From the IMG/VR virus record IMGVR_UViG_3300029520_000002: 64,000 bases of DNA. One strand, 5' to 3'. This DNA is from a virus. Shown here piece by piece: positions 2,530-40,129 of the stretch (position 1 is the stretch's first letter; each line of letters starts with the position of its first letter). Under the pieces are notes generated by a model that saw nothing but the letters and a program-made list of their open reading frames with translations, was not told the DNA's origin and did no database searches. The translations under genes and the position numbers were made by a program.

Positions 2530-2718
2530 ATGGGAGAAACTAAAAGTACAGATTATATTCCAGAGAACGCCAATGAAGAATATGCACTTCTGGTTGGAAG
2601 ATTAAAGGCATTTGAAGCTTGGGCGAATAACGTGAACGATTATGATTTCACAAAGGATATGGCATTTAGAATGCTTGGGCTTGATGTGGACGAATCAAAG
2701 AAGGAAAAGAAAAAATGA
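2530..2718 (+). CDS. hypothetical protein
   Basis: 62-aa ORF with SD AAGGAGA, tightly packed with its neighbours. Confidence 0.55.
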   Translation: MGETKSTDYIPENANEEYALLVGRLKAFEAWANNVNDYDFTKDMAFRMLGLDVDESKKEKKK

Positions 2719-3665
2719 AATGCTTTAAAGGCTTTGATAAGAATTTAAAGTGCAGAGGTTTCCAGTATGAGGAGGGAAAAGAGTTTCATGTAGCAAAAGC
2801 GGATTGCTGTAATGAGGGATTTCATGCGTGTGAGTATCCTTTGGATTGTTTTGGTTATTATAATCCGGCTGAGAGTGTTTTCCATGAGGTAGAGTTATCT
2901 GGAGAAATGGATAAGAGTGAAGGTTATACTAAGGTATGTGCTACTGATATTAAGATTGGTGCAAGAATCTCTATTGCTGGATTGGTGAAAGCAGCTATTG
3001 AGTTTACCATGAGTAAAGTAAACAAAGAGGAAAAATCAGATGAAAGACACGGCTTTGCATCTGCGACAGGGTATCGTGGAGCCTCATCTGCGACAGGGAA
3101 TTTTGGAGCCTCATCTGCGACAGGGGATCGTGGAGCCTCATCTGCGACAGGGGATTATGGAGCCTCATCTGCGACAGGGGATTATGGAGCCTCATCTGCG
3201 ACAGGGGATTTTGGAGCCTCATCTGCGACAGGGGATTATGGAGCCTCATCTGCGACAGGGTATCGTGGAGCCTCATCTGCGACAGGGTATTGTGGAGCCT
3301 CATCTGCGACAGGGTATCGTGGAGCCTCATCTGCGACAGGGAATTTTGGAGCCTCATCTGCGACAGGGTATTGTGGAGCCTCATCTGCGACAGGGTATTG
3401 TGGAGCCTCATCTGTTAATGATCCTACTGGTGTTGCAATTGCATGGGGACATGAGGCAAAAGCTAAAGGTTGCTTAGGTGCTCACTTGATTATCTCTGAC
3501 TGGAGATACATTGGAGAAAAGTGGTCTAATGGAGAGTATAAAAGACCTTATGCATTAGAAAACTGGGAGCTTGCTGGTGCTAAAATGGTACGGGTAGATG
3601 GAGAAAACATTAAAGAAGATACTTTCTATACGTTGAAAGACGGAAAATTTGTAGAAGTAGATTAA
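2715..3665 (+). CDS. repeat protein: Cys/His-rich N-domain (DUF7666-like by recollection) plus about 13 nonapeptide repeats ASSATG-x-x-G
   Basis: 316-aa ORF. N-terminus is MKCFKGFDKNLKCRGFQYEEGKEF...CCNEGFHACEYPLDCFGYY. The central repeat is G-ASSATG-(Y/D/N)(R/Y/F/C). Confidence 0.7.
   Translation: MKCFKGFDKNLKCRGFQYEEGKEFHVAKADCCNEGFHACEYPLDCFGYYNPAESVFHEVELSGEMDKSEGYTKVCATDIKIGARISIAGLVKAAIEFTMSKVNKEEKSDERHGFASATGYRGASSATGNFGASSATGDRGASSATGDYGASSATGDYGASSATGDFGASSATGDYGASSATGYRGASSATGYCGASSATGYRGASSATGNFGASSATGYCGASSATGYCGASSVNDPTGVAIAWGHEAKAKGCLGAHLIISDWRYIGEKWSNGEYKRPYALENWELAGAKMVRVDGENIKEDTFYTLKDGKFVEVD
3057..3414 (+). repeat. 27-bp tandem repeat, about 13 copies, in-frame within CDS 2715-3665
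   Basis: The unit tcatctgcgacaggg-NATNNT-ggagcc repeats head to tail. Variation is confined to two codons per unit. Confidence 0.95.
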
Positions 3666-9174: not shown

Positions 9175-9774
9175 ATGAATGAAATTTTAAAGAAAGCAAA
9201 AGAACTGGTTGAACTTTTAGAGAAGCAGGAGAAAAGTGGGAAAATCAAATTATCAGAGTTGAACCCTGGTGATGTATTCCAAACTACAGGTAAAAGAAAA
9301 TACAAAGTGTTGGAACAGTATGAAAATACCACCAAGATAGTTTCTTTTAACCTTGTAAAAGAAAATGTAAAATTCGGGGATAATGCAGATTATTTAGAGT
9401 CTGAATTAAAAGAACTTTGTGACACGGAAATTTTAGCGAATTTTGAAGAGGAATTTGGTGCGGAGAATATTGAAACACATGAAGCAGATCTTATTACGGT
9501 CGACGGTCAGAATACAGGCGTTTCGGTGAAATGTAAAATCAGACCTCTTACATTTGATGAAGCAAGAAAATATACGGAATTAACTCCGAACAAAAAACTT
9601 AATGACTGGTATTGGACATGTACATCTTGGTCAACAAAAGAACGCGGATGGAATAGCGTTGCCGTTGTTTCCTCCTCGGGTAACGTCCGCAACTATGTCT
9701 GCCTCGGTGTCAACGGTGTTCGCCCAGTTTGTATCTTAAAATCTAATCTCTTTGTATCTAAGGTGGAGGAATAA
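9175..9774 (+). CDS. DGR target protein 1 (DUF6273-like, C-terminal variable region)
   Basis: The C-terminus ...WYWTCTSWSTKERGWNSVAVVSSSGNVRNYVCLGVNGVRPVCIL contains VR1. Paralog of the next gene. No signal peptide. Confidence 0.85.
   Translation: MNEILKKAKELVELLEKQEKSGKIKLSELNPGDVFQTTGKRKYKVLEQYENTTKIVSFNLVKENVKFGDNADYLESELKELCDTEILANFEEEFGAENIETHEADLITVDGQNTGVSVKCKIRPLTFDEARKYTELTPNKKLNDWYWTCTSWSTKERGWNSVAVVSSSGNVRNYVCLGVNGVRPVCILKSNLFVSKVEE
9661..9735 (+). repeat. DGR variable region VR1
   Basis: 75 nt alignable to the TR. In the central 27 nt, 10 mismatches all fall at TR adenines. Confidence 0.9.
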
Positions 9775-9776
9775 AA

Positions 9777-10373
9777 ATGAAAAAAGATTTGAAATATTTT
9801 GAGTCAGAAATAAAAAGAATTACAGAGGAATTCGAGGATTACAAAAAGAAACACATGGGCACTCCGAAACCCGGGGAAGTGGTTGAAATTTCCGGTATGG
9901 AATGGATGATCCTGGACAAGCTTCCAGATGGATATTTTGCAATTTTAAATAGTTTTTATGGTAAAGCAAAAATGTTTGATTCAGATTCCAGCAATTGGAA
10001 AGAAAGTTCTTTAAGAGAAGAATTAAACACATCATTTTTAGAAAAAATTAATACGACTTTCGCTGGAAATGCAGTTGTTGAATTTGACCGTAACCTGTTG
10101 GCATTGGACGGGCAGACTGAATATGGAACTTGTAGAGATAAGATTTCACTCTTAACCGTTGATGAATACAGAAAATACAGGAAATATTTGCCAAATATGG
10201 ATAAATGGTGGTGGCTTATTACACCATGTAGTACACCTTGCAATGATTATTTTAAGAGCGTTGCCGTTGTTTCCTCCTCGGGTAACGTCCGCAGCAGTAA
10301 CTGCAGCAATGGCCTCGGTGTTCGCCCAGTTTGTATCTTTTCCTCTTCAATCTTTGAATCAGACGAGGATTAA
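9777..10373 (+). CDS. DGR target protein 2 (DUF6273-like, C-terminal variable region)
   Basis: The C-terminus ...WWWLITPCSTPCNDYFKSVAVVSSSGNVRSSNCSNGLGVRPVCIF contains VR2. Confidence 0.85.
   Translation: MKKDLKYFESEIKRITEEFEDYKKKHMGTPKPGEVVEISGMEWMILDKLPDGYFAILNSFYGKAKMFDSDSSNWKESSLREELNTSFLEKINTTFAGNAVVEFDRNLLALDGQTEYGTCRDKISLLTVDEYRKYRKYLPNMDKWWWLITPCSTPCNDYFKSVAVVSSSGNVRSSNCSNGLGVRPVCIFSSSIFESDED
10263..10337 (+). repeat. DGR variable region VR2
   Basis: 75 nt alignable to the TR. In the central 27 nt, 8 mismatches all fall at TR adenines. Confidence 0.9.
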
Positions 10374-10396
10374 TAATGGCAAATGAAGATTTATAG

Positions 10397-10747
10397 GTGA
10401 TAATAAAAGCCAAGCAGTTAGCAAAACACACGCTTATAGTAACCAGTAACGCGAGGAGATATCCTAAGAAATTCAGATTTTCTTTAGTTGATAAAATGCA
10501 GAACAAATCGCTCGAAATACACGCTAAGCTCTTTGAAGCCAATCGAACAGATTTGAAAGATTATAAGAGAGAAAGGCTAGAATTACAGACAAAAGCAATT
10601 ACATATTGTGATGAACTTCTCTTTTATATAGAGCTTTCATACGAGCTTAACATCATTAATTCGGGAAGTATGGAGGCATGGTCGAAAATGGTTACAGATA
10701 TTAAGCATATGGCGATTGCTTGGAGAACAAAAGACAGAAACAGATGA
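10397..10747 (+). CDS. avd: DGR accessory variability determinant (Avd-like four-helix-bundle protein)
   Basis: 116-aa basic helical protein between the targets and the TR. Size, position and pattern fit Avd. GTG start. Confidence 0.75.
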   Translation: MIIKAKQLAKHTLIVTSNARRYPKKFRFSLVDKMQNKSLEIHAKLFEANRTDLKDYKRERLELQTKAITYCDELLFYIELSYELNIINSGSMEAWSKMVTDIKHMAIAWRTKDRNR

Positions 10748-10771
10748 TTTTTATAGGTTATGCGTTGTAGA

Positions 10772-10846
10772 GCCGTTGTTTCCTCCTCGGGTAACGTCAA
10801 CAACAATAACTGCAACAATGACAACGGTGTTCGCCCAACCTGTATC
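10772..10846 (+). repeat. DGR template repeat (TR)
   Basis: Sequence: gccgttgtttcctcctcgggtaacgtc-AACAACAATAACTGCAACAATGACAAC-ggtgttcgccca-acctgtatc. A-rich AAC/AAT codons. Lies in non-coding DNA between avd and the RT. Confidence 0.9.
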
Positions 10847-10941
10847 ACAGGCAGACAGAGTAAGCAGAAAGCTGAAATCCGAATAGATACAAGCAAATGC
10901 ATAACCTTTCCGAAATGGATAAATATAAAGGAACAAAATAA

Positions 10942-11832
10942 ATGGATAAAGAAATTGTGGCAAATTTTGAAAACTTGTATTCATCTTACAAACGAGTTAA
11001 GGCAGATAAAAAATTCAATTCCGGCACTGCCAGGTTTTCTATTATGGCGTTGGAAGGAATCCAAACATTGAAAGAACAATTGGAAAATCAAACGTATTCC
11101 ATAGCACCGTATAATAAATTCAAAATATATGAGCCGAAAGAACGCATCATAGAATCGTGTTCTTTCAAAGACAAGACGGTACAGAGATGCTTTTCAGACT
11201 ACATTCTTACGCCGAAATTAAATAATATTTTTATAAAATGGAACACAGCAGGACAAATCGGAAAAGGTCATTATATGGCAATGGATGGTCTGCGAGATCA
11301 TATGTTGGAATTTTACGGTAAAAATGGTTTAAATGGCTGGATTGTAAAATGCGATATTCATAAATATTTTTACAGCATAGATCATGAAATCATGAAAGAC
11401 GTGGTGGATTACTATTTTGATGATGAATTTACAGTGTGGTTAAATCATCTATTTATTGACAGCGCCGAAAATCCAGGACTTCCACTTGGAAATCAAGTTA
11501 ATCAGAAATACGCATTGTTGTTACTGCATTCACTGGATCAAATGATAACAATTGAATACGGAATACAGCATTACGGAAGGTATAACGATGATTTCTATGT
11601 GATTTGTAAAAGTAAAGAAGAAGCCAGAGAAATACTTGAAGCTATCCAACTCATGGTTGAAAGCCTTAAATTAGAATTGAATACCAAATCACAGATTGTG
11701 CCATTTAAAATGGGATTGTGCTATCTTGGCTTTCACCATTATGTAACCTCCGATGGGAAATATATTAGAAAACTTCGAGGAGATAAAAAAGAAAAACACA
11801 CAGGAAGATTCGAAATTGGATTAGAGCTGTGA
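10942..11832 (+). CDS. DGR reverse transcriptase (main ORF, ends prematurely)
   Basis: RT motifs: EPKERIIESCSFKDKTVQ, CDIHKYFYSIDH, GLPLGNQVNQ, and the catalytic RYNDDFYV (YxDD). Confidence 0.9.
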   Translation: MDKEIVANFENLYSSYKRVKADKKFNSGTARFSIMALEGIQTLKEQLENQTYSIAPYNKFKIYEPKERIIESCSFKDKTVQRCFSDYILTPKLNNIFIKWNTAGQIGKGHYMAMDGLRDHMLEFYGKNGLNGWIVKCDIHKYFYSIDHEIMKDVVDYYFDDEFTVWLNHLFIDSAENPGLPLGNQVNQKYALLLLHSLDQMITIEYGIQHYGRYNDDFYVICKSKEEAREILEAIQLMVESLKLELNTKSQIVPFKMGLCYLGFHHYVTSDGKYIRKLRGDKKEKHTGRFEIGLEL

Positions 11833-25575: not shown

Positions 25576-26496
25576 TTGGAGAAAGGAATTTTAGAATTGG
25601 CAAGCGATGTAAAATGGATAAAAATATGTTCAGATATTTTCGACGATGAAAAAATAATGCTGATTGAAAATTTGCCAAGTGCAGACAGCATTATCGTAAT
25701 ATGGTTCAAATTATTATGCTTAGCCGGGAAAAATAACAACAGTGGTGTTTTTATTTTAAACGATAAAATTGCATATACAGATGAAATGTTGGCAACAGTA
25801 TTTAGAAGAGACATTAATACAGTTCGATTAGCGTTAAAAACATTTGAAAACTACGGAATGATTGAAATTGTTTCCGGTGTTTACACAATTCCGAACTGGG
25901 GAAAATATCAAAATCTTGATAAAATTGAGCAAAAAAGCCAATATATGCGAAACTATATGCAAGAATATCGAAAAAAGCAGAAAGACAAAATAGAGTGTAA
26001 AACTAACAGTAAACTTTACGGTAAAGTTAACAGTAAAACTAACGTTAGCTCGGCAGAAGTATATAATAAAGAACTAGATAATAAAGAATTAGATAATAAA
26101 GAAAAAGAAATAGAAGAAGAGAATGATTTAATAGTATCTTTAGATACTATTCGTCAGACTGACGTCCAACGAATCATTGATGAATGGAATACTCTGGAAG
26201 AATTCGGCATTACTCCTGTAAAAAGAATGACACCAAAACGAGAACAGGCAGTGAAAGCTAGAATCCGTCAGAACTGTGTTGAAGATATTCTGGAAGCGAT
26301 TGAAAATATTCGACGCAGCACATTCCTACAAGGGCAAAATAAAAATGGCTGGATGGTTACGTTTGACTGGTTCTTAAAGCCTGGAAATTTCGCAAAAGTA
26401 TTTGAAGGGCAATACGCAGACAAGTCTACGAATAGACCGTGCAGCTACATGGAGAAAATTCAAAACAGGGTAAGCGAGGTAGATAATTGGGTATGA
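25576..26496 (+). CDS. phage replisome organizer
   Basis: VKWIKICSDIFDDEKIMLIENLPSADSIIVIWFKLLCLAGKNNNSG... fits the replisome-organizer N-terminal domain. TTG start is uncertain. Confidence 0.7.
   Translation: MEKGILELASDVKWIKICSDIFDDEKIMLIENLPSADSIIVIWFKLLCLAGKNNNSGVFILNDKIAYTDEMLATVFRRDINTVRLALKTFENYGMIEIVSGVYTIPNWGKYQNLDKIEQKSQYMRNYMQEYRKKQKDKIECKTNSKLYGKVNSKTNVSSAEVYNKELDNKELDNKEKEIEEENDLIVSLDTIRQTDVQRIIDEWNTLEEFGITPVKRMTPKREQAVKARIRQNCVEDILEAIENIRRSTFLQGQNKNGWMVTFDWFLKPGNFAKVFEGQYADKSTNRPCSYMEKIQNRVSEVDNWV
26063..26107 (+). repeat. three tandem 15-bp repeats inside the replisome-organizer gene (candidate origin iterons)
   Basis: ataataaagaactag / ataataaagaattag / ataataaagaaaaag, contiguous. 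Encodes NKELDNKELDNKEKE. Confidence 0.8.
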
Positions 26497-27468: not shown

Positions 27469-27596
27469 AACGTGATAATTGTGTATTTAAAATAGAACAG
27501 AATCATTCAAAATAGAATAATGGTAGAAATATAGGGCATACAAAAGATAAAGAAAAACAGCGTTTAAAATGAGATAATTATATGGAGGGACAATTA

Positions 27597-27704
27597 ATGG
27601 AAAAAGCTATATTGTATGCCATAAATGAAAGAATGTTCTCACTTGGTCTGATAGATGAGAAAACAAGGGACAAAATAAAAGCTGAAATTAGCATTAGAAA
27701 GTAA
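27597..27704 (+). CDS. small protein (35 aa) upstream of the recombinase
   Basis: ATG 6 nt after GGAGGG. Sequence is MEKAILYAINERMFSLGLIDEKTRDKIKAEISIRK. Confidence 0.35.
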   Translation: MEKAILYAINERMFSLGLIDEKTRDKIKAEISIRK

Positions 27705-27784
27705 CAAAATGTATTGAGTGGAGTTATGTGAAGTGTTATACTTTATATGATTCCACTCCCTGTATATTGAGGGAGAAATGCACT

Positions 27785-29497
27785 ATGAATATTTATTATG
27801 TCAGAGAAAAATTAAGGAGTTGTTCTATTTACGACATTGAACTGAATGTTGCTTATTACGCTAGGGTTTCTACGGAAAAAGTTGAACAGCAAGCATCCAT
27901 TAAACACCAGGAGGAACATTTCGAAGAACTGATACATTCTAACAACAGATGGAAGTTTGCAGGTTCTTACATTGATGATGGTATTTCCGGAATGCACGCA
28001 GATAAAAGAGAAGAATTTCAAAGAATGCTCAGAGATGCAAAGCTCGGAAAAATTGACATGATTATTACGAAAGAAATCTCAAGATTTGCACGAAATACTC
28101 TTGACAGCATCCAATATACCAGGGAATTGTTATCTTACGGCGTATGCGTGTGGTTCCAAAATGACGGAATCAATACCATTGATGAAGATAGTGAACTTAG
28201 GCTAACAATTATGGCTGGAGTAGCACAGGACGAAATCAGAAAATTATCTTCAAGAATAAAATTCGGCCATGCACAGTCAATTAAAAACGGTGTTGTACTT
28301 GGGCACAGAATGTATGGATACTCAAATCATCAAGGAAAACTTGAGCTAATCCCGGAAGAAGCAGATATGGTTCGAATGGTCTTTCGAGACTATGCTTCTG
28401 GAATGTCTACACCAAGAATCGAAAAAAAACTCTGGAATATGGGATATAGAAGTTTCAAAGGCGGTAAGATCAGTAGAGATGTCATAAAAAATATTATTCG
28501 GAATCCAAAATACAAAGGATACTATTGCGGAGGAAAAGTCAAGATCGTTGATATGTTCACAAAAAAGCAGGAATTTCTTCCACAGTCAGAATGGATAATG
28601 TTTAAGGATGATGGTTCCAGAGTACCGCAGATCATTGATGAAACTACCTGGGAAAAGGCAAACGCATATTTAAGAGAGCGTGGAGAAGCTATAAAATCAA
28701 GAAGAACCTCTTTTAAAAACGAAAATATTTTCACTGGAAAACTTTTCTGCGCAAATGACGGAGCTCCATACTGGATGAAGCAGCATTATATTCGAGGAAA
28801 AGAAGATGTTCGATGGGTATGCAGTTATAAGATAAAAAATGGAGCAGATTCATGTGATTCATTTGGACTGGCAGAATCAGAACTGAAAGAAGTAATCGCA
28901 GAATTAATAAATAAATCTTCTGAAAACATTGATAGCATTTTGGAGGAATATTTTGAAATTTTGCAGTCCTCGATCAAAAACATTCCAGACAATAAAAACG
29001 AAATCTCACGACTTGAAAAACAGATTGATCTGTTAAAACAAAAACGTGAAAAAATACTGGAATATAATCTGGATGGAAAAATATCTGATGATGAATTTAT
29101 TTCAAGAAATAAAGAATACGTGAAGCAGATAAAGCAGATTGAGAGCCATATTCTAGAAATCCAAAATACAAAAAGTCCAGAGCCAGTAGAAATACAATTA
29201 AGTGCTATTAAAGAACAGCTAGAAAAGTTTAAGGGCGTTAATCCAAAAGACATTAACAGGCAGATTGTCAATGAACTTTTTGAAAAAATTACCGTGGAAC
29301 CGTTGGCGGCTACATGTGCAACACTAACATTTCAATTGAGGTCTGGAAGCATTGAAAAATGGGGGTTTCCCTTGCGCCGTTCTGACGATATGATTTTAAC
29401 TCTACATTCAGAACAACACAAGATATTTAGTAGGAAAACTTGCATTAAGACACAAGATATGGTATTTTTCAAATATAAGTACCTTTTAGCACTATAA
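27785..29497 (+). CDS. large serine recombinase (integrase)
   Basis: Resolvase domain with YARVSTE. Recombinase domain (EEADMVRMVFRDYASGMSTPRIEKKLWNMGY). Cys cluster and coiled coil. SD GAGGGAGAA. Confidence 0.9.
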   Translation: MNIYYVREKLRSCSIYDIELNVAYYARVSTEKVEQQASIKHQEEHFEELIHSNNRWKFAGSYIDDGISGMHADKREEFQRMLRDAKLGKIDMIITKEISRFARNTLDSIQYTRELLSYGVCVWFQNDGINTIDEDSELRLTIMAGVAQDEIRKLSSRIKFGHAQSIKNGVVLGHRMYGYSNHQGKLELIPEEADMVRMVFRDYASGMSTPRIEKKLWNMGYRSFKGGKISRDVIKNIIRNPKYKGYYCGGKVKIVDMFTKKQEFLPQSEWIMFKDDGSRVPQIIDETTWEKANAYLRERGEAIKSRRTSFKNENIFTGKLFCANDGAPYWMKQHYIRGKEDVRWVCSYKIKNGADSCDSFGLAESELKEVIAELINKSSENIDSILEEYFEILQSSIKNIPDNKNEISRLEKQIDLLKQKREKILEYNLDGKISDDEFISRNKEYVKQIKQIESHILEIQNTKSPEPVEIQLSAIKEQLEKFKGVNPKDINRQIVNELFEKITVEPLAATCATLTFQLRSGSIEKWGFPLRRSDDMILTLHSEQHKIFSRKTCIKTQDMVFFKYKYLLAL

Positions 29498-29505
29498 GAG
29501 AAAAA

Positions 29506-30186
29506 ATGGGAGTGGAATCAATGATACATACAGCTTATGACGTAATGAAAGAGTTTTTAATCACGGATGCAGACCTCGATGGCAAGTACGGAATTCCGAA
29601 AATTCCAAAGACTTTTATCCATCCAGGGAAAGATACTGTAGACTTTGCGGAGAGTTTCAGTAGAAAGATAAAGAACCACCGGGAACTGGATGTAAATTTC
29701 TATGTGGACGATGTACAGTTTCAAAGATTATGGAATCAGCCAGACAAGTATATAGAGCATTTAAAATGTTTTCACGCAGTCATTATGCCGGATTTTAGCA
29801 TATCAGTTGGCAAGAATGGAATGCCGCTGGTAATGTGCCTGTGGAATAAATACCGCAATCATGCGTTGGCACATTATATGATCTTGAATGATATTCCAGT
29901 AATTCCGAACGTAAACATATTACCAGAATACTGTTGGGATTGGTGTTTTGATGGACTGCCGGAGGGAAGCACAGTTGCCTGTTGCACCAATGGAAGAGTA
30001 AAGAGCAAGGCAGCACGGTTGGAGTTTTGCGTTGGTTTCAAGGAAATGGAGCGCAGATTGAAGCCACTGCGAGTTATCATTGTTGGAAGAATCCCGGAAG
30101 AGCTGGAAACAGACACAGAAATTATAAACTTTGAAACCAGGAATCAGAAGATTAACAAGGAGGGCGTGAATGGGAACAACGACTGA
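29506..30186 (+). CDS. DUF4417-like protein
   Basis: VNFYVDDVQFQRLWNQPDKYIEHLKCFHAVIMPDFSI...WNKYRNHALAHYMILNDIPVIPNV... matches my recollection of DUF4417. Alternative start at 29521. Confidence 0.6.
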   Translation: MGVESMIHTAYDVMKEFLITDADLDGKYGIPKIPKTFIHPGKDTVDFAESFSRKIKNHRELDVNFYVDDVQFQRLWNQPDKYIEHLKCFHAVIMPDFSISVGKNGMPLVMCLWNKYRNHALAHYMILNDIPVIPNVNILPEYCWDWCFDGLPEGSTVACCTNGRVKSKAARLEFCVGFKEMERRLKPLRVIIVGRIPEELETDTEIINFETRNQKINKEGVNGNND

Positions 30187-30304
30187 TAATTACCAGAGAA
30201 AGAAGAAACTTTCCAAGTCCCAAATGAAGCGGACTGAACGATTAGAGAAATCATCCCACAGAAGATATGGAACACGGAAGAAAGAAGGATTAAATAAATT
30301 GTGA
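30170..30304 (+). CDS. small basic protein (44 aa)
   Basis: ATG 5 nt after AAGGAGGG. K/R-rich. Confidence 0.35.
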   Translation: MGTTTDNYQRKKKLSKSQMKRTERLEKSSHRRYGTRKKEGLNKL

Positions 30305-30362
30305 ATATTGAATCATTTAAAACTTTACGCTATAGAAATATTTGTGCAAAATTAAAATTTAA

Positions 30363-30407
30363 GTGGTAACTAGAAAATGCAAGATTTTTTCTGGTTGCCA
30401 CTTTTTT
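30363..30407 (+). terminator. intrinsic terminator ending the + strand early/integrase unit
   Basis: GTGGTAACTAG pairs with CTGGTTGCCAC (includes G-U pairs), followed by T6. Confidence 0.6.
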
Positions 30408-30409
30408 CT

Positions 30410-31134
30410 GGATTTCCTTGATTTTTGGCTGCCAAAATGATGTTTGAATTTGGATATCATTCACAAGTTAGTTGCAACTATTGAAGCCTTGAACAGCTGC
30501 GGTTATTTATTACCACAAATCAACCAGGGACAGCGCCTGGAGCCGATACCACGCCGAACCGATGAAGCCGGGAAACTGCCAGGAACGATTGAACACCAAC
30601 GAAGTCAACCGCCAGCCGTAGCTCTGGCAGATCAGAACCAATAGCCCACGGATAATAGGCCATAGCAACAAGTAACATACAACACGACGTTAAAATACAA
30701 TAATACTCTTGCAAAATAAGCCTTAAATGGCTTGTAACGTATTTAGCCTATATTTTATTGGCTACGATTATAAAACGCCTTAAAATGGCAAATACAGCGT
30801 TATACAAGCATATCACAATATAGTTGTATAGCCCTAATTGATATATAGCCCGGACAACCTACGCACATAAGCGGACAAAATGCACCAATTTACACGGTAC
30901 ACAAATAAAGCATAGCCGAACATAGCTATACAAGGCTATTATACACCCATAGCCGCAGACAGTCAATAAATCATGCAACACACTATAAAGCGTTTTAAAG
31001 GCTCATAAACGGCTTATAATGCAAACGTGGAATAAATCACCATTAACAGCATAAAAAAACGATTTACGGATAAAATAGCTCGTTAATTGATTGACTTATT
31101 ATATTAACTTTGCAAGGTGTATCTGGCAGAATGC
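30410..31134. other. ORF-free, strand-asymmetric (A+C-rich top strand), iteron-bearing region
   Basis: No credible ORF. Hand counts for 30841-30900 and 30901-30960 give A 23/25, C 17/16, G 10/9, T 10/10. ATAGCC(C/G) occurs five times in one orientation. GCCTTAAA(A)TGGC mini-hairpins are present. Confidence 0.6.
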
Positions 31135-31190
31135 CAAAAAACCGCTTGCACGCCGTGAACGTGCCGCCGGTCTAGAAACCGGGAAGCGGT
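31135..31190 (-). terminator. intrinsic terminator of the minus-strand operon
   Basis: In minus sense, ACCGCTT...AAGCGGT encloses two inner hairpins and is followed by T6. Confidence 0.65.
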
Positions 31191-31196
31191 AAAAAA

Positions 31197-31346
31197 TCAA
31201 TCAGTTATACCTAAATATTCCATAGTTTTTTTATCAATCTCTTTCCCAGTAATAGTCGGGGAATAAATACTTTCTAAAAATTCTATGTAATTGTCTAGCT
31301 CATCAACAGAAAGTGTTATTAATTTATTAAATATTTTATCACTCAT
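31197..31346 (-). CDS. small hypothetical protein (49 aa)
   Basis: MSDKIFNKLITLSVDELDNYIEFLESIYSPTITGKEIDKKTMEYLGITD. Last gene of the minus-strand operon. Confidence 0.4.
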   Translation of the reverse strand: MSDKIFNKLITLSVDELDNYIEFLESIYSPTITGKEIDKKTMEYLGITD

Positions 31347-31402
31347 GTTTTTATCTTTCTTCCCTTCACCCTGGGAACCAGGATATAAAAAGACGCGCCC
31401 TA

Positions 31403-31780
31403 TTATTTAAAAGTCATTTTTGTAACAGCTGGAAGACTGCGGAAAAATTCCCGGCGGTCGTAATCATCATTAATTCTAAATTGTTGGTCGCTTGTGGGGA
31501 TGATCTCGCCCTCGATAAGCTCCATACAGGAGAGCTGTAAACAGTCTGCATTTTTTGTTGATCTGTGCAGCGCATATCGCATCACAGACTTTTTACCATC
31601 CCGACGCTTTACCGGGGACATATCCCAATAAGCCAATTTAATAGCTCCATCGGAAACAGCCTTGAAGATTTCCATTGCTTCCTTTTCAGCTTTTCTGTTG
31701 ATTGTATCAACTGTGGAGAAATCGCCGCTTTTTATGGCGGCGATTGTCTGTGCTTGTGTTGCTTTCTTGATTGTTACCAT
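31403..31780 (-). CDS. hypothetical protein
   Basis: 125-aa ORF with an SD (GGAGGTG on the minus strand) upstream. Confidence 0.65.
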   Translation of the reverse strand: MVTIKKATQAQTIAAIKSGDFSTVDTINRKAEKEAMEIFKAVSDGAIKLAYWDMSPVKRRDGKKSVMRYALHRSTKNADCLQLSCMELIEGEIIPTSDQQFRINDDYDRREFFRSLPAVTKMTFK

Positions 31781-31791
31781 TTACGCACCTC

Positions 31792-32070
31792 CTACAGATC
31801 TTTCTTTCTCTTAACGTCAATGACTTCATAATCGTTTTCAGAAAGATCCTTTAACATTCTCAATGCTTCCATGGTATTCTCTGGAATATCATAACCATTT
31901 TCACGAAGGAGATCAGCGGCGGTAACAAGATACTGATTTCCATAGCCATACTGAATACTACTTTTTAAAATATGGCCATTTACGACAATCGTTACTGTGT
32001 GATAAGTATTTCCATATAATTTTTGAAACCATCTGCGGCCTCTAATTACTAATGTTTCGATTTTTTTCAT
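31792..32070 (-). CDS. hypothetical protein (RRWF...GNTYH...YGYG motif)
   Basis: 92 aa. SD AAAGGTGAAAAA on the minus strand. First gene downstream of a strong consensus promoter. Confidence 0.65.
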   Translation of the reverse strand: MKKIETLVIRGRRWFQKLYGNTYHTVTIVVNGHILKSSIQYGYGNQYLVTAADLLRENGYDIPENTMEALRMLKDLSENDYEVIDVKRKKDL

Positions 32071-32126
32071 TGTTTTTCACCTTTACCCCTGTTATAATGG
32101 GGTTGCCTTTCTTTTTTTAGTTTGGT

Positions 32127-32162
32127 GCCCGGTTTGGTTTGGAAGATCGCCGGGCTTTTTTT
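32127..32162 (+). terminator. intrinsic terminator (+ sense) upstream of the switch
   Basis: GCCCGG (32127-32132) pairs with CCGGGC (32150-32155), followed by T7. Would block + strand read-through that is antisense to the minus operon. Confidence 0.6.
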
Positions 32163-32191
32163 ATTTTGTTGTAATGTTTCTTTCTAGTATT

Positions 32192-32220
32192 ATAATAACA
32201 CTATATAGTAATACTGTCAA
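32192..32220 (-). promoter_or_regulatory. sigma-A-type promoter of the minus operon with embedded operator
   Basis: In minus sense: TTGACA (32220-32215), 17-nt spacer, TATTAT (32197-32192). The spacer contains the operator-like AACACTATATAGT. Confidence 0.6.
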
Positions 32221-32242
32221 GCACTATTATATTATTTCTTAA

Positions 32243-32272
32243 TTGACTTTTGATACTTTTTAGTGTTATCCT
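32243..32272 (+). promoter_or_regulatory. promoter of the XRE-like gene with embedded operator
   Basis: TTGACT (32243-32248), 18-nt spacer, extended -10 TGtTATCCT. The spacer contains ATACTTTTTAGTGTT (operator copy, 32253-32267). Confidence 0.5.
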
Positions 32273-32291
32273 GTTTCCAGGAGGTGAAAAA

Positions 32292-33111: not shown

Positions 33112-33988
33112 AGTGTGTTTGAAAAATAAAAGTTGCACAAAACATATATTCGTTTACCCTTTTTCATGTTAAAATAAAGAAAAAGGGGTGTTGATTATGT
33201 TGCGCCGATACGAATTAACCGATGATGAATGGAATCGTGTTGCTCCCTTACTGCCACCTGAAAATTCTGGAAAGCAAGGTCGTCCTTCAAAATGTAATCG
33301 GACAATTCTAAATGGAATTGTTTGGATTGCTCGCAGTGGGGCTCCCTGGCGGGACCTCCCAGAACGTTATGGGGCCTGGCAAACGGTTTATTCCCGTTTT
33401 CGTAAATGGATTGAAGATGGCATCCTTGATAATATTTTTCGTGTCTTGAGCTTAGAAGCTGAATTAACGGAACTATCAATTGATGCCTCTATCGTCCAGG
33501 CTCATCAGCATAGTGCTGGAGCAAAAAAAGGGGGCCATCAAACGAAATTGGACACAGCCGTGGAGGAGCCAGCACAAAAATCCATGCAGTTGTAGATGCA
33601 TACGGTTATCCGGTTTATTTTATGATCAGCGAAGGGCAGCGTAACGATATTAATTACGCAATCCCTTTGTTAGATCATGTCGACACAAACGGAAGCAATG
33701 TATTAGCTGACCGTGGATACGATAGCAACAAGCTGATTGACTATATTTATACCCACGGTGGAGAGCCAACAATTCCTTCTAGAAAAGGAGCTAAGTTTGA
33801 TCGTTATTGCGATTGGTGACTTTACAAAGAGAGACATTTAGTAGAAAACTATTTTCTCAAATTGAAAGCGTTCCGTCGAATAGCTACGCGTTACGATAAA
33901 CTGGCTTCAACCTTCTTAGGAATTATATGCATTGCCTCAATATTAATTTGGTTAAAATGAACAACTTAGAATGTTTTTCAAACACGCT
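33112..33988 (+). mobile_element. IS5-family insertion sequence (877 bp)
   Basis: Terminal inverted repeats AGTGTGTTTGAAAAAT and AGCGTGTTTGAAAAAC (reverse complement), 15/17 matches. Flanked by a 4-bp direct repeat CTAG (33108-33111 and 33989-33992). Confidence 0.85.
33197..33960 (+). CDS. IS5-family transposase (orfA/orfB -1 frameshift; internal TGA)
   Basis: orfA is MLRRYELTDDEWNRVAPLLPP...SGAPWRDLPERYG. The slippery site is A AAA AAA G at 33523-33530. orfB reads ...RGGASTKIHAVVDAYGYP...LADRGYDS...RIATRYDKLA. An in-frame TGA at 33817-33819 precedes LYKERHLVENYF. Confidence 0.75.
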
Positions 33989-38781: not shown

Positions 38782-38854
38782 TGGGCTATCGCCAAACGGT
38801 TAAGGCATAGGATTTTGGCTCCTTTATTTGTCGGTTCGAATCCGACTAGCCCCG
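38782..38854 (+). tRNA. tRNA-Gln (anticodon UUG)
   Basis: Hand-folded cloverleaf of 73 nt. Acceptor TGGGCTA/TAGCCCC (1-72 is a T-C mismatch). D arm GCC/GGC. Anticodon arm TAGGA-TTTTGGC-TCCTT. T arm GTCGG-TTCGAAT-CCGAC. Resembles Bacillus tRNA-Gln. No encoded CCA. Confidence 0.8.
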
Positions 38855-38857
38855 TTC

Positions 38858-38888
38858 GCAGCATCACCTTGCTGCAAGTTCTTTTTTT
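38858..38888 (+). terminator. hairpin plus T-run after tRNA-Gln
   Basis: GCAGCA-tcacct-TGCTGC, then aagttcTTTTTTT. Confidence 0.5.
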
Positions 38889-39060
38889 CATACTTTCACC
38901 TCCGGTCTTCTAGCCCAACGGGGCTGATTAAAGGGGCTTCAAATATCCCGGAAGGCTTATCTGAAGTATCAGGAGTATTTCAGAAAACCTTTGTTATAGT
39001 TGGTGGTTAAGAACTGTAACAGTGCCAGTTTGGTTACCAGTATTGCCAACTGGTATCTCA

Positions 39061-39133
39061 GGAAGCTTAGTTCAGCGGTAAGAGCAACGGCCTCATAAGC
39101 CGTAAGTCCTGGGTTCAAATCCCAGAGCTTCCA
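39061..39133 (+). tRNA. tRNA-Met/Ile2-type (anticodon CAU), elongator-like
   Basis: Acceptor GGAAGCT/AGCTTCC. D arm GTTC/GAGC. Anticodon arm ACGGC-CTCATAA-GCCGT. T arm CTGGG-TTCAAAT-CCCAG. The G1-C72 pair argues against an initiator. Confidence 0.85.
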
Positions 39134-40057
39134 TTTCTCCTAAATGCCATTCATCCGTAATATGGGTGGAAAAAACTTCCGGTTGAGCGTGTGGATCAGG
39201 TAAATTATAGGTGCGATACGGCGCAGCCTAAATGGATCTGGTTTCCCAGCTGGAATGCATCTTGGAGTTAAAGAAATCAGCGCAGCGCACGCTGATTAAA
39301 GGAGTTTTCAAAAGATGCGAACCATAAGCCATTAAAGTTGTGCATAAAAATACTCGTGGAGCATACCACGGTTATCAAAAAGCCGCCAGGGTTGCCAGTA
39401 AGCGTACCGCAAATAAAGAAAACTGGATAGTGGAAAGCATAACACGATAAACCTATTGCTAACCCGGTTTTTCCGGGTTATTCGGAAAGTGCAAGTAACT
39501 GGGAACGGCCTGGTCGTAGACTAGGTCTTAATGGTTCGAATCCATTCTTTCCGTTCCGTATAGTGGCGAAATATGTAGACGCTATTGTGGTAGCATAGGT
39601 TTCAACCCACAACTTAGGTGACCTAAGTCGACAGCATGATAGGTGTAAATCCTATCCTATACGGACGTTTGGCGTGTTGAGTGATAACACACCTGATTGA
39701 AAAGTGGCGGAACTATTGACGGTGATGAATCCGATACAATAGAAAGGCAGACGCAGAGGATAGTACATCATAATGGGTGAGTATGTGTCTTAGGACATGG
39801 GATGTACATAGAAGTTCAAATCTTCTCTTTTCAATTCTATCTACCAAGTGTAGATTGGAAATCTGACTTTAGCATAGCTATTGTTAGTTCTCGCACATAA
39901 ATGAGGATTTGTTTGTGTGCGTTCGTGCAGGCATATAGACGCAACTCACTAGCGATCTTGTGCAAAAACTTTTTAGAGAGATAAGACCAATGCCCGTGAG
40001 GAGTGATAGTCGGGGATTCTAAAAAAATCATCTTGTTTAGCGTTTGAGGATGAAAAA
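39134..40057 (+). ncRNA. candidate large structured non-coding RNA region between tRNA genes
   Basis: About 0.92 kb without a credible ORF. Many local hairpins, e.g. AATCAGCG-cagcgca-CGCTGATT at 39283-39305 and AACCCGG-tttttc-CGGGTT near 39461. Three T-arm-like modules. Confidence 0.4.
39483..39554 (+). tRNA. tRNA-like element, identity unresolved (possible pseudo-tRNA)
   Basis: Perfect 7-bp acceptor CGGAAAG/CTTTCCG and canonical T arm AATGG-TTCGAAT-CCATT. The anticodon arm CCTGG-TCGTAGA-CTAGG has C at position 33, and the D stem does not pair. Confidence 0.3.
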
Positions 40058-40129
40058 AGAAACATAGCTCAGTGGTAGAGCAATGATATCCAATATCATG
40101 TGACACAGGTTCGATTCCTGTTGTTTCTA
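40058..40129 (+). tRNA. tRNA-Trp (anticodon CCA)
   Basis: Acceptor AGAAACA/TGTTTCT. D arm GCTC/GAGC. Anticodon arm ATGAT-ATCCAAT-ATCAT. T arm ACAGG-TTCGATT-CCTGT. Confidence 0.85.

Follow-up and report, generated by a model that had tools for sequence, protein, structure and literature searches.

We examined a gene-free block, positions 30410-31134, in a 64,000-nucleotide stretch of viral DNA (IMG/VR record IMGVR_UViG_3300029520_000002, hereafter the window) that covers most of the genome of a temperate phage of about 80 kb. With a probability of roughly one half, we read the block as the non-coding flank of the phage attachment site (attP), holding a regulated non-coding transcription unit directed at attP. 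As a region it is of a fairly ordinary phage kind, an attachment-site flank with a relic and an orphan operator-covered promoter. Its anatomy is conserved across the phage family, an att core lies beside it, and it gives neither a coding signal nor a signal of conserved RNA structure. From the sequence we infer that a promoter on its minus strand is active, that a regulator binds the palindromes lying over this promoter, and that the resulting RNA may have a role.

The family was assembled from more than 100 related contigs of 40-90 kb in human-gut metagenomes and viromes, found through the 125-amino-acid (aa) product of a neighboring gene. The gene-free gap is present in all of these contigs, in a single copy per contig, and aligns end to end at 80-100 % identity; one relative (n = 1) lacks 30647-30841. 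Family alignments of 51 and of 100 distinct sequences were built, and the counts given below refer to them.

A predicted minus-strand promoter conserved throughout the family

The element that carries our reading is a predicted sigma-A/sigma-70-type promoter on the minus strand (TTGACT-17-TATAAT, 30966-30938), which matches the consensus at 11 of 12 positions. With the -35 box at 30966-30961 and the -10 box at 30943-30938, transcription is predicted to start near 30931 and to run toward attP. In a scan of both strands, all 100 distinct sequences carry the promoter at the homologous position (98 with TATAAT and 2 with TATGAT). It is the sole promoter-like site present in every sequence, the runner-up being found in 60 of the 100. 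Both hexamers are invariant in the 51-sequence alignment and the spacer between them is variable.

The promoter is overlapped by a cluster of short repeats. An earlier note on this DNA, made from the letters alone, had listed five ATAGCC iterons in one orientation (30641, 30828, 30845, 30912 and 30949, plus strand). These positions are right, and an additional copy lies on the minus strand at 30934. The enrichment of the shorter ATAGC motif is confirmed as well, with eight copies on the plus strand versus 0.6 expected (p 2e-7) and two on the other strand. Copies 30641 and 30662 are confined to few genomes and are not conserved in the family. Copies 30828 and 30845 are kept in roughly half of the relatives and fall at an indel hot spot with two TATAGCCC direct repeats 17 nt apart (30826-30852, plus strand); the first TATAGCCC copy is missing from 10 relatives, and a 30-nt segment after 30848, present in 47 of 51 relatives, is missing here and in three relatives. 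The copies at 30922 and 30949 are kept in nearly all relatives, the one at 30912 in about 45 of 51, and the inverted copy at 30934 is likewise kept in most or nearly all. Only three to four of the eight "iterons" are therefore conserved. Turning to homologous phages for an intact gene or for conserved motifs, as the earlier note had proposed, gives a divided answer: no gene is kept in the relatives, and the motif copies are conserved only in part.

The four conserved ATAGC copies lie within 45 bp of each other and overlap the minus-strand promoter (30912-30954), forming operator-like half-sites of palindromes over its spacer, its -10 box, the predicted start and positions +15 to +20. The halves ATAGCCgaacATAG and CTATacaaGGCTAT make up a 28-bp imperfect palindrome centered at 30925/26, GGCTAT-N9-ATAGCC spans the -10 box and the spacer, and ATAGC copies also form the palindrome ATAGCTAT at +3 to +10 of the predicted transcript. 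These palindromic arrangements are unique in the 64 kb and resemble an operator at which a dimeric DNA-binding protein would control the promoter. Temperate-phage operators place palindromic repressor sites over -35, -10 and +1. The coverage of spacer, -10 box, start and early transcribed region by four half-sites resembles them, whereas the motif differs from theirs in being found nowhere else in the 64 kb, the Cro/CI-like switch region included.

The first 32 nucleotides of the predicted transcript (+1 to +32; 30910-30931, minus strand) would contain an 8-bp hairpin followed by UUUAUUUGUG, a terminator-like element of -9.6 kcal/mol. Three of 51 relatives have lost the 3′ arm of this hairpin, which is therefore not essential.

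The attachment site and the integrase cassettes

The sequence TTGAATCATTTAAAACTTT at 30308-30326, 84 nt left of the block and beyond the plus-strand terminator, is, we conclude from sequence alignment, the attP core. In a three-way alignment this 19-nt core (AAAGTTTTAAATGATTCAA on the minus strand) matches exactly between phage, host and junction, with divergence on both sides. The junction is a contig of 691 nt from the European Nucleotide Archive (ENA), L222, which follows the phage from 30531 to 30308 and then continues into unrelated AT-rich DNA. It was first met as a 188-aa protein with a glucosaminidase domain, a homologue of the long minus-strand open reading frame (ORF) described below. 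On its host side the contig shares 97 % identity with the 3′ end portion of a gene for a cell-wall hydrolase in Clostridium sp. CAG:343. The hydrolase has 425 aa with regions of G5-like, SH3b-like and glucosaminidase type, and the integration target is the linker before the glucosaminidase domain. Related genes occur in dozens of genomes of uncultured gut Clostridia. As deposited, the L222 protein (P0139) reads the junction TAG as Gln, which table 11 would not give; a genetic code with TAG recoded was apparently applied when the gene was called.

Within the phage family the center of the core is hypervariable amid conserved flanks, with at least 8 common variants. Several of the variants are synonymous in the host reading frame (TTA/CTA/CTG for Leu, GTT/GTG for Val), as exchange with bacterial attachment-site (attB) sequences of the host would produce. 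Between core and block, three TTTYTGG repeats phased at 17 nt (30385-30435, plus strand; copies at 30388, 30405 and 30422) occur nowhere else in 29900-30800. They are 62-115 nt from the core, overlap the plus-strand terminator and then extend past it, and by their sequence are possible arm sites for the recombinase or for a recombination directionality factor (RDF).

The integrase cassette is polymorphic on one backbone (27492-29522, compared with relative L002 and others), with breakpoints at 27491 and 29523 that place the block outside the swapped segment. One version consists of a 35-aa ORF and a large serine recombinase (106 loci), the other of a tyrosine integrase plus 324 nt (66 loci). 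A third, distant tyrosine integrase type exists, and the main tyrosine integrase gene is about 100 % identical across backbones that are 10-20 % divergent. Because the block is kept with the serine and the tyrosine enzymes alike, its body is not attP. An integrase or RDF binding region with attP had been among the functions suggested for the block; the core is indeed adjacent and 30385-30435 offers candidate arms, but the block itself is unlinked to the recombinase.

Composition and coding potential

The block is composed of 36.4 % A, 21.5 % C, 17.8 % G and 24.3 % T. Its A+C content of 0.579 compares with 0.516 +/- 0.026 over all 725-nt windows, and in the 64 kb each of the five windows richest in A+C begins at 30451-30551. 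The block has a negative GC skew and a positive AT skew, and both flanks differ from this. The block had been described as strongly A+C-skewed; it is the most skewed stretch of the window, but "strongly" is generous, the skew being mainly an excess of C over G.

The description of the block as ORF-free holds, the longest ORFs in 30410-31134 having 53-66 aa. None of the ORFs inside the block is intact across the 51 distinct relatives, whereas 50 of 51 keep the flanking 44-aa ORF whole. The largest codon-phase share in any 90-nt window of the block is 0.34-0.49, which indicates no periodicity, and reaches 0.82 in the 44-aa ORF. In each of the six frames, the ratio of non-synonymous to synonymous polymorphism (pN/pS) falls within 0.5-1.0. 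Only 5 of 100 sequences have a minus-strand frame of 116-133 aa open, and this frame continues across the terminator hairpin and past it. A search of 5.8 billion proteins gave homologues of the 133-aa minus-strand ORF of relative L195 inside the phage family only, and Pfam and PHROG scans of the block ORFs returned no match.

A gradient of constraint and a GC-rich relic

Nucleotide diversity at the third codon positions of the three nearest conserved genes, 0.10-0.18, served as the neutral yardstick. Diversity is 0.15 at 30410-30499, 0.19 at 30500-30699, 0.08 at 30700-30799, 0.09 at 30900-30979, 0.07 at 31040-31134 and 0.05-0.06 in both terminators. From this gradient across the gap it follows that the left third is neutral and the right two-thirds are moderately constrained.

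The neutral part, 30440-30699, is GC-rich (52 %), skewed toward C over G and devoid of a conserved frame; its diversity is 0.15-0.19, and it contributes much of the A+C skew of the block. It has indels of 7, 10, 17 and 43 nt, and its rare alleles comprise 117 GC-to-AT changes versus 45 AT-to-GC changes. Judged as a pseudogene, 30440-30700 displays a neutral rate, frameshifting indels and AT-ward decay, while an intact homologue outside the family is absent. We read the GC-rich block as foreign or relic DNA eroding toward an AT-rich equilibrium, with a composition that is not selected.

Two AT-rich conserved blocks occupy parts of the right-hand side. The one at 30693-30800 (diversity 0.081, column conservation 94-95 %) is nearly indel-free, has no significant conserved fold and includes two GCC...GGC mini-palindromes; its plus-strand promoter-like site is found in 60 of 100 relatives, many of the others having TAAAAA instead of TAAAAT as the -10 box. 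The other, at 31040-31134 (diversity 0.073), adjoins the terminator of the minus-strand operon and contains the inverted repeat GTTAAT-N15-ATTAAC, with no conserved promoter-like site and no assigned function. The mini-palindromes reported earlier are found at 30720-30731, 30777-30789 and 30990-31002. Their arms do not covary, and variants such as GAC...GAC disrupt the pairing.

Terminators and RNA structure

Both terminators that had been placed at the borders of the block are present. On the plus strand, a hairpin at 30361-30403 with a U6 tail (-22.3 kcal/mol) belongs to the intrinsic terminator (30361-30409, 17-bp stem) of the integrase-DUF4417-44aa operon, which it faces from across attP. 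Its pairs are kept in the 51 sequences; as minus-strand RNA, the same hairpin reaches only -12.9 kcal/mol and its U tail is interrupted. On the minus strand, a hairpin at 31141-31190 with a U6 tail (-24.5 kcal/mol) forms the branched intrinsic terminator of the 92aa-125aa-49aa operon, with pairs kept, and compensatory changes among them, in the 51 sequences. With a terminator on each side, the earlier statement that the block is not an obvious untranslated region (UTR) stands. A further strong plus-strand intrinsic terminator, at 32130-32165 (GCCCGG...CCGGGC then T7), is located inside the 5′ UTR of the minus-strand operon, where it would halt antisense (plus-strand) transcripts past that operon, ahead of the promoter of a helix-turn-helix (HTH) gene.

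Searches with Rfam, at gathering thresholds on the whole window and at E values up to 10 on 30100-31500, returned only tRNAs and noise. Single-sequence folding gave unremarkable z scores of -1.5 and -1.7. Alignment folding on both strands, scored against column-shuffled alignments, gave z values from +2.4 to -2.6 in all blocks except one, and the sole block standing out (z -4.5) is the holder of the plus-strand terminator. RNAalifold predicts mainly the two terminators on the plus strand, and the 7 of its 94 predicted pairs that covary belong mostly to them. A structured non-coding RNA, whether ROOL/GOLLD-like or of any Rfam family, was rejected on the lack of a covariance-model match and of a conserved fold. 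The block shares with ROOL and GOLLD a length of 0.6-0.8 kb, a phage location, the absence of genes and conservation; it differs from them in having no Rfam match even at E 10, no significant consensus fold and almost no covariation. The unstructured CA-rich RNA proposed earlier keeps a small probability, but the only universal promoter points the opposite way.

A proposed transcription unit facing attP

Since the core lies 84 nt to its left, the block would form the outermost ~0.8 kb of the prophage in a lysogen, integrated into the cell-wall hydrolase gene of a gut Clostridia host of the Clostridium sp. CAG:343 clade. The region has four parts. The integrase-operon terminator (30361-30409), overlapped by the possible arm sites at 30385-30435, is followed by the neutrally evolving GC-rich relic (~30440-30700), by a moderately constrained AT-rich part (30700-31134) whose functional core would be the minus-strand promoter with the ATAGC palindromes, and by the terminator of the adjacent minus-strand accessory operon.

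Because no conserved ORF lies downstream, the product of the promoter would be a non-coding, G+U-rich RNA. Ending at 30733-30712, where there are a weak hairpin and a U tract, would make it about 0.2 kb long, and extension to the 30407-30363 hairpin would give about 0.6 kb. In the minus direction this latter hairpin is much weaker, so that part of the transcripts would be expected to pass attP. In the circular genome the crossing transcripts would be antisense to the 44aa-DUF4417-integrase operon; in the lysogen they would enter the severed 3′ half of the host gene.

A more specific version, which we regard as speculative and to which we assign a small chance, is that the RNA has a topology-dependent target, being antisense to the integrase operon when the genome is circular and outward into host genes in the lysogen, where integration has separated the promoter from that operon. 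Such an RNA would be a promoter-based counterpart of lambda sib retroregulation. In the lysogen, transcription would pass into the cut-off catalytic half of the hydrolase gene and on into the genes that follow, possibly relieving polarity; the host genes after the hydrolase have no terminator before them, and one promoter-like site is present there at chance level. The likeness to lambda attP and sib consists in a non-coding region across attP from the int operon, with the int terminator beyond the core. Integration therefore separates this terminator from int, and an element in the region can affect int transcripts only while the genome is circular. Unlike lambda, no RNase III-type sib hairpin was found here and the conserved element is a promoter pointing back to attP, an arrangement that would imply antisense RNA or outward transcription and not a processing site in int mRNA. 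A search of the literature on outward promoters and retroregulation found nothing directly relevant.

Several points weigh against a regulated transcription unit beside attP. The promoter is a sequence prediction, and the promoter scan counts 10 sites versus 7.9 in shuffled sequence, with conservation alone singling this one out. Constraint at 30700-31134 is modest, with diversity of 0.07-0.09 versus 0.10 at the third positions of the 44-aa ORF. The predicted minus-strand transcript folds without significant conserved structure or covariation, and 11-mers common to the block and the rest of the window occur at chance level, with no target complementarity beyond it. No candidate regulator of the ATAGC palindromes was found, and the motif is absent from the lysis-lysogeny switch region at 32070-32290. 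The att assignment is based on the single 691-nt contig; no second junction came from a protein search for the host-phage fusion tail or from two junction patterns in JGI metagenomes, and no prophage copy was found in 185,579 reference genomes via the 125-aa neighbor. Finally, each att core variant is found with both serine and tyrosine cassettes.

Other explanations

Morons are promoter-gene-terminator cargo units at prophage ends, and the block may be the fossil of one, which is the main alternative to our reading, though we consider it unlikely. A GC-rich foreign gene on the minus strand (~30715-30330), at the prophage end, would have decayed, leaving the promoter and the 30407-30363 hairpin as remains of the cargo unit and any RNA functionless. 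The block resembles morons in its place at the extreme prophage end beside a variable accessory operon, in its own sigma-70-type promoter and downstream hairpin, and in the foreign base composition of its body. The neighboring minus-strand operon is itself a cargo unit of variable content, the GC-rich block evolves at the neutral rate with frameshifting indels and decays to AT from far outside compositional equilibrium, and 5 of 100 relatives still have the minus frame of 116-133 aa open. However, a dead unit should lose its promoter too, and the invariance of the promoter therefore argues against a fossil: the unit has no conserved ORF and its body decays, but the hexamers are unchanged in 98 of 100 sequences while 8-19 % of neighboring sites differ within the family. 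The open frame, moreover, continues across the terminator hairpin and past it, variation does not peak at its third codon positions, and its 133-aa form has family-only homologues among the 5.8 billion proteins and no Pfam or PHROG match. A live moron was rejected, with no ORF kept, pN/pS of 0.5-1.0 in six frames and no homologues outside the family. An array of integrase, RDF and host-factor sites across the whole flank, with ATAGCC and TTTYTGG as arm-type sites, would make the block an extended attP arm. The core only 84 nt away, the 17-nt phase of the three TTTYTGG repeats at 62-115 nt from it and the enrichment of ATAGC in one orientation all agree with such an array. We nevertheless find it improbable: lambda-type attP arms span about 250 bp, and the ATAGCC cluster lies 500-630 bp from the core with its conserved ATAGC copies at 585-630 bp, beyond known arm spans and separated from the core by a neutral, indel-rich stretch. 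Serine integrases use armless sites of about 50 bp, and the same flank is kept by 106 serine and 66 tyrosine loci.

Transcription in the other direction would give the plus strand a role as a C-rich, G-poor unstructured RNA, either a Rho-utilization (rut) zone or a CA-rich regulatory RNA, so that any transcript reading through from the integrase operon would end before meeting the convergent minus-strand operon. Rut sites need composition and not sequence. C exceeds G throughout, the plus strand has the composition expected of rut sites and folds no better than shuffled sequence, fast evolution at 30500-30699 would fit a need for composition only, and the plus-strand terminator at 32130-32165 is a guard against plus-strand transcription across the minus-strand operon. 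The strong terminator at 30361-30409, however, already stands upstream of the block, no plus-strand promoter is conserved (the best occurs in 60 of 100 relatives), and the GC content is decaying and not maintained. A plus-strand element would also leave the invariant minus-strand promoter and its palindromes unexplained, and we judge it distinctly improbable. An iteron-type replication origin or a plasmid-like partition site, as the earlier note had suggested, is very improbable. Iteron origins have several direct repeats of 17-22 bp at regular spacing, an AT-rich unwinding element and a cognate initiator. Here short repeated motifs do occur in AT-rich DNA without genes, the replication module is 3-5 kb away on the left side, and the phage is found almost only as unit-length ~80-kb contigs and not within long host contigs. 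But the motif is short (5-7 bp), irregularly spaced (10, 17, 27 and 67 nt), conserved in only three to four copies and absent from the replisome-organizer gene, and no initiator is adjacent. No Rep, ParA or ParB was found among the neighbors or the larger ORFs scanned, which are part of the ORFs of the window, and the partition-site suggestion falls with this result to the extent of that scan. The block has no similarity to 72,556 plasmids and one relative does without 30647-30841. In the neighboring DUF4417 protein, the match to a nuclease profile is limited to the C-terminal half of that profile, without the ParB-like N-terminal half that is present in fusion proteins (bioRxiv 10.1101/2025.10.10.680097). 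A pac site, also suggested earlier, is unsupported, the terminase gene being 13 kb away.

Genomic setting and other features of the window

To the left of the block, all on the plus strand, are a replisome organizer (25576-26496) with a helicase-loader-like gene, the large serine recombinase (27728-29497), the DUF4417 protein gene (29506-30186) and the 44-aa ORF with its very basic product (30170-30304). To the right, three small minus-strand genes of 49, 125 and 92 aa without assigned function (31197-32070) form an operon divergent from a Cro/CI-type HTH gene at 32250. The Shine-Dalgarno sequences are strong and the promoters are of the TTGACA/TATAAT type, both signs of a Firmicutes host. Searching with the block itself, blastn gave no match in 50,697 phage records or in the plasmids, and the 64-kb window holds no second copy of the block and no partner of it in a diversity-generating retroelement (DGR). 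In MT835477, a distant relative with a DUF4417 protein 66 % identical to that of the window, unrelated DNA takes the position of the block, namely a 400-nt gap and a 712-aa gene without similarity to it.

The first genes of the minus-strand operon (31792-32070 in the window; relatives L111-L117) are variable cargo, found as 92 aa, as DUF4121 (318 aa) with 67 aa, as 121 and 122 aa, or as 132, 147 and 67 aa; neither the 125-aa gene nor the gap changes. The region of the 49-aa ORF is hypervariable, with a nucleotide diversity of 0.34 at all codon positions. An IS4/IS5-family transposase fragment (DUF4096, 33188-33595) is present here and in relative L004, and other relatives have GIY-YIG or other genes there; the variable zone around it is the break point of several assemblies. 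The sole inspected contig much longer than 90 kb, ENA scaffold L112 (158,776 nt), is about twice the unit genome. It probably arose when a genome that is circular or terminally redundant was assembled head to tail, and not from an integrated prophage.

Elsewhere the window carries a complete DGR (9175-11832), which is unrelated to the block. It consists of a reverse transcriptase (10942-11832), an Avd-like protein (10397-10747), an A-rich template repeat (10772-10846) and variable repeats at 9661-9735 and 10263-10337, the 3′ ends of two adjacent target genes. Thirteen tandem 27-nt units at 3004-3495 encode a collagen-like repeat in a DUF7666 protein (ORF 2715-3665), and three phage tRNA genes (Gln-TTG, Met-CAT and Trp-CCA) are found at 38782-40129.

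Implications

The block, at first sight an iteron origin, combines relic DNA with a single conserved regulatory promoter in a mosaic. The analysis assigns an attP/attB pair and a host clade, the relatives of Clostridium sp. CAG:343, to a widespread uncultured family of ~80-kb human-gut phages. The occurrence of a single att core with either integrase cassette is a puzzle worth following. If the RNA does act across attP, it would provide this family with a simple and testable control of the integrase that senses the state of integration.

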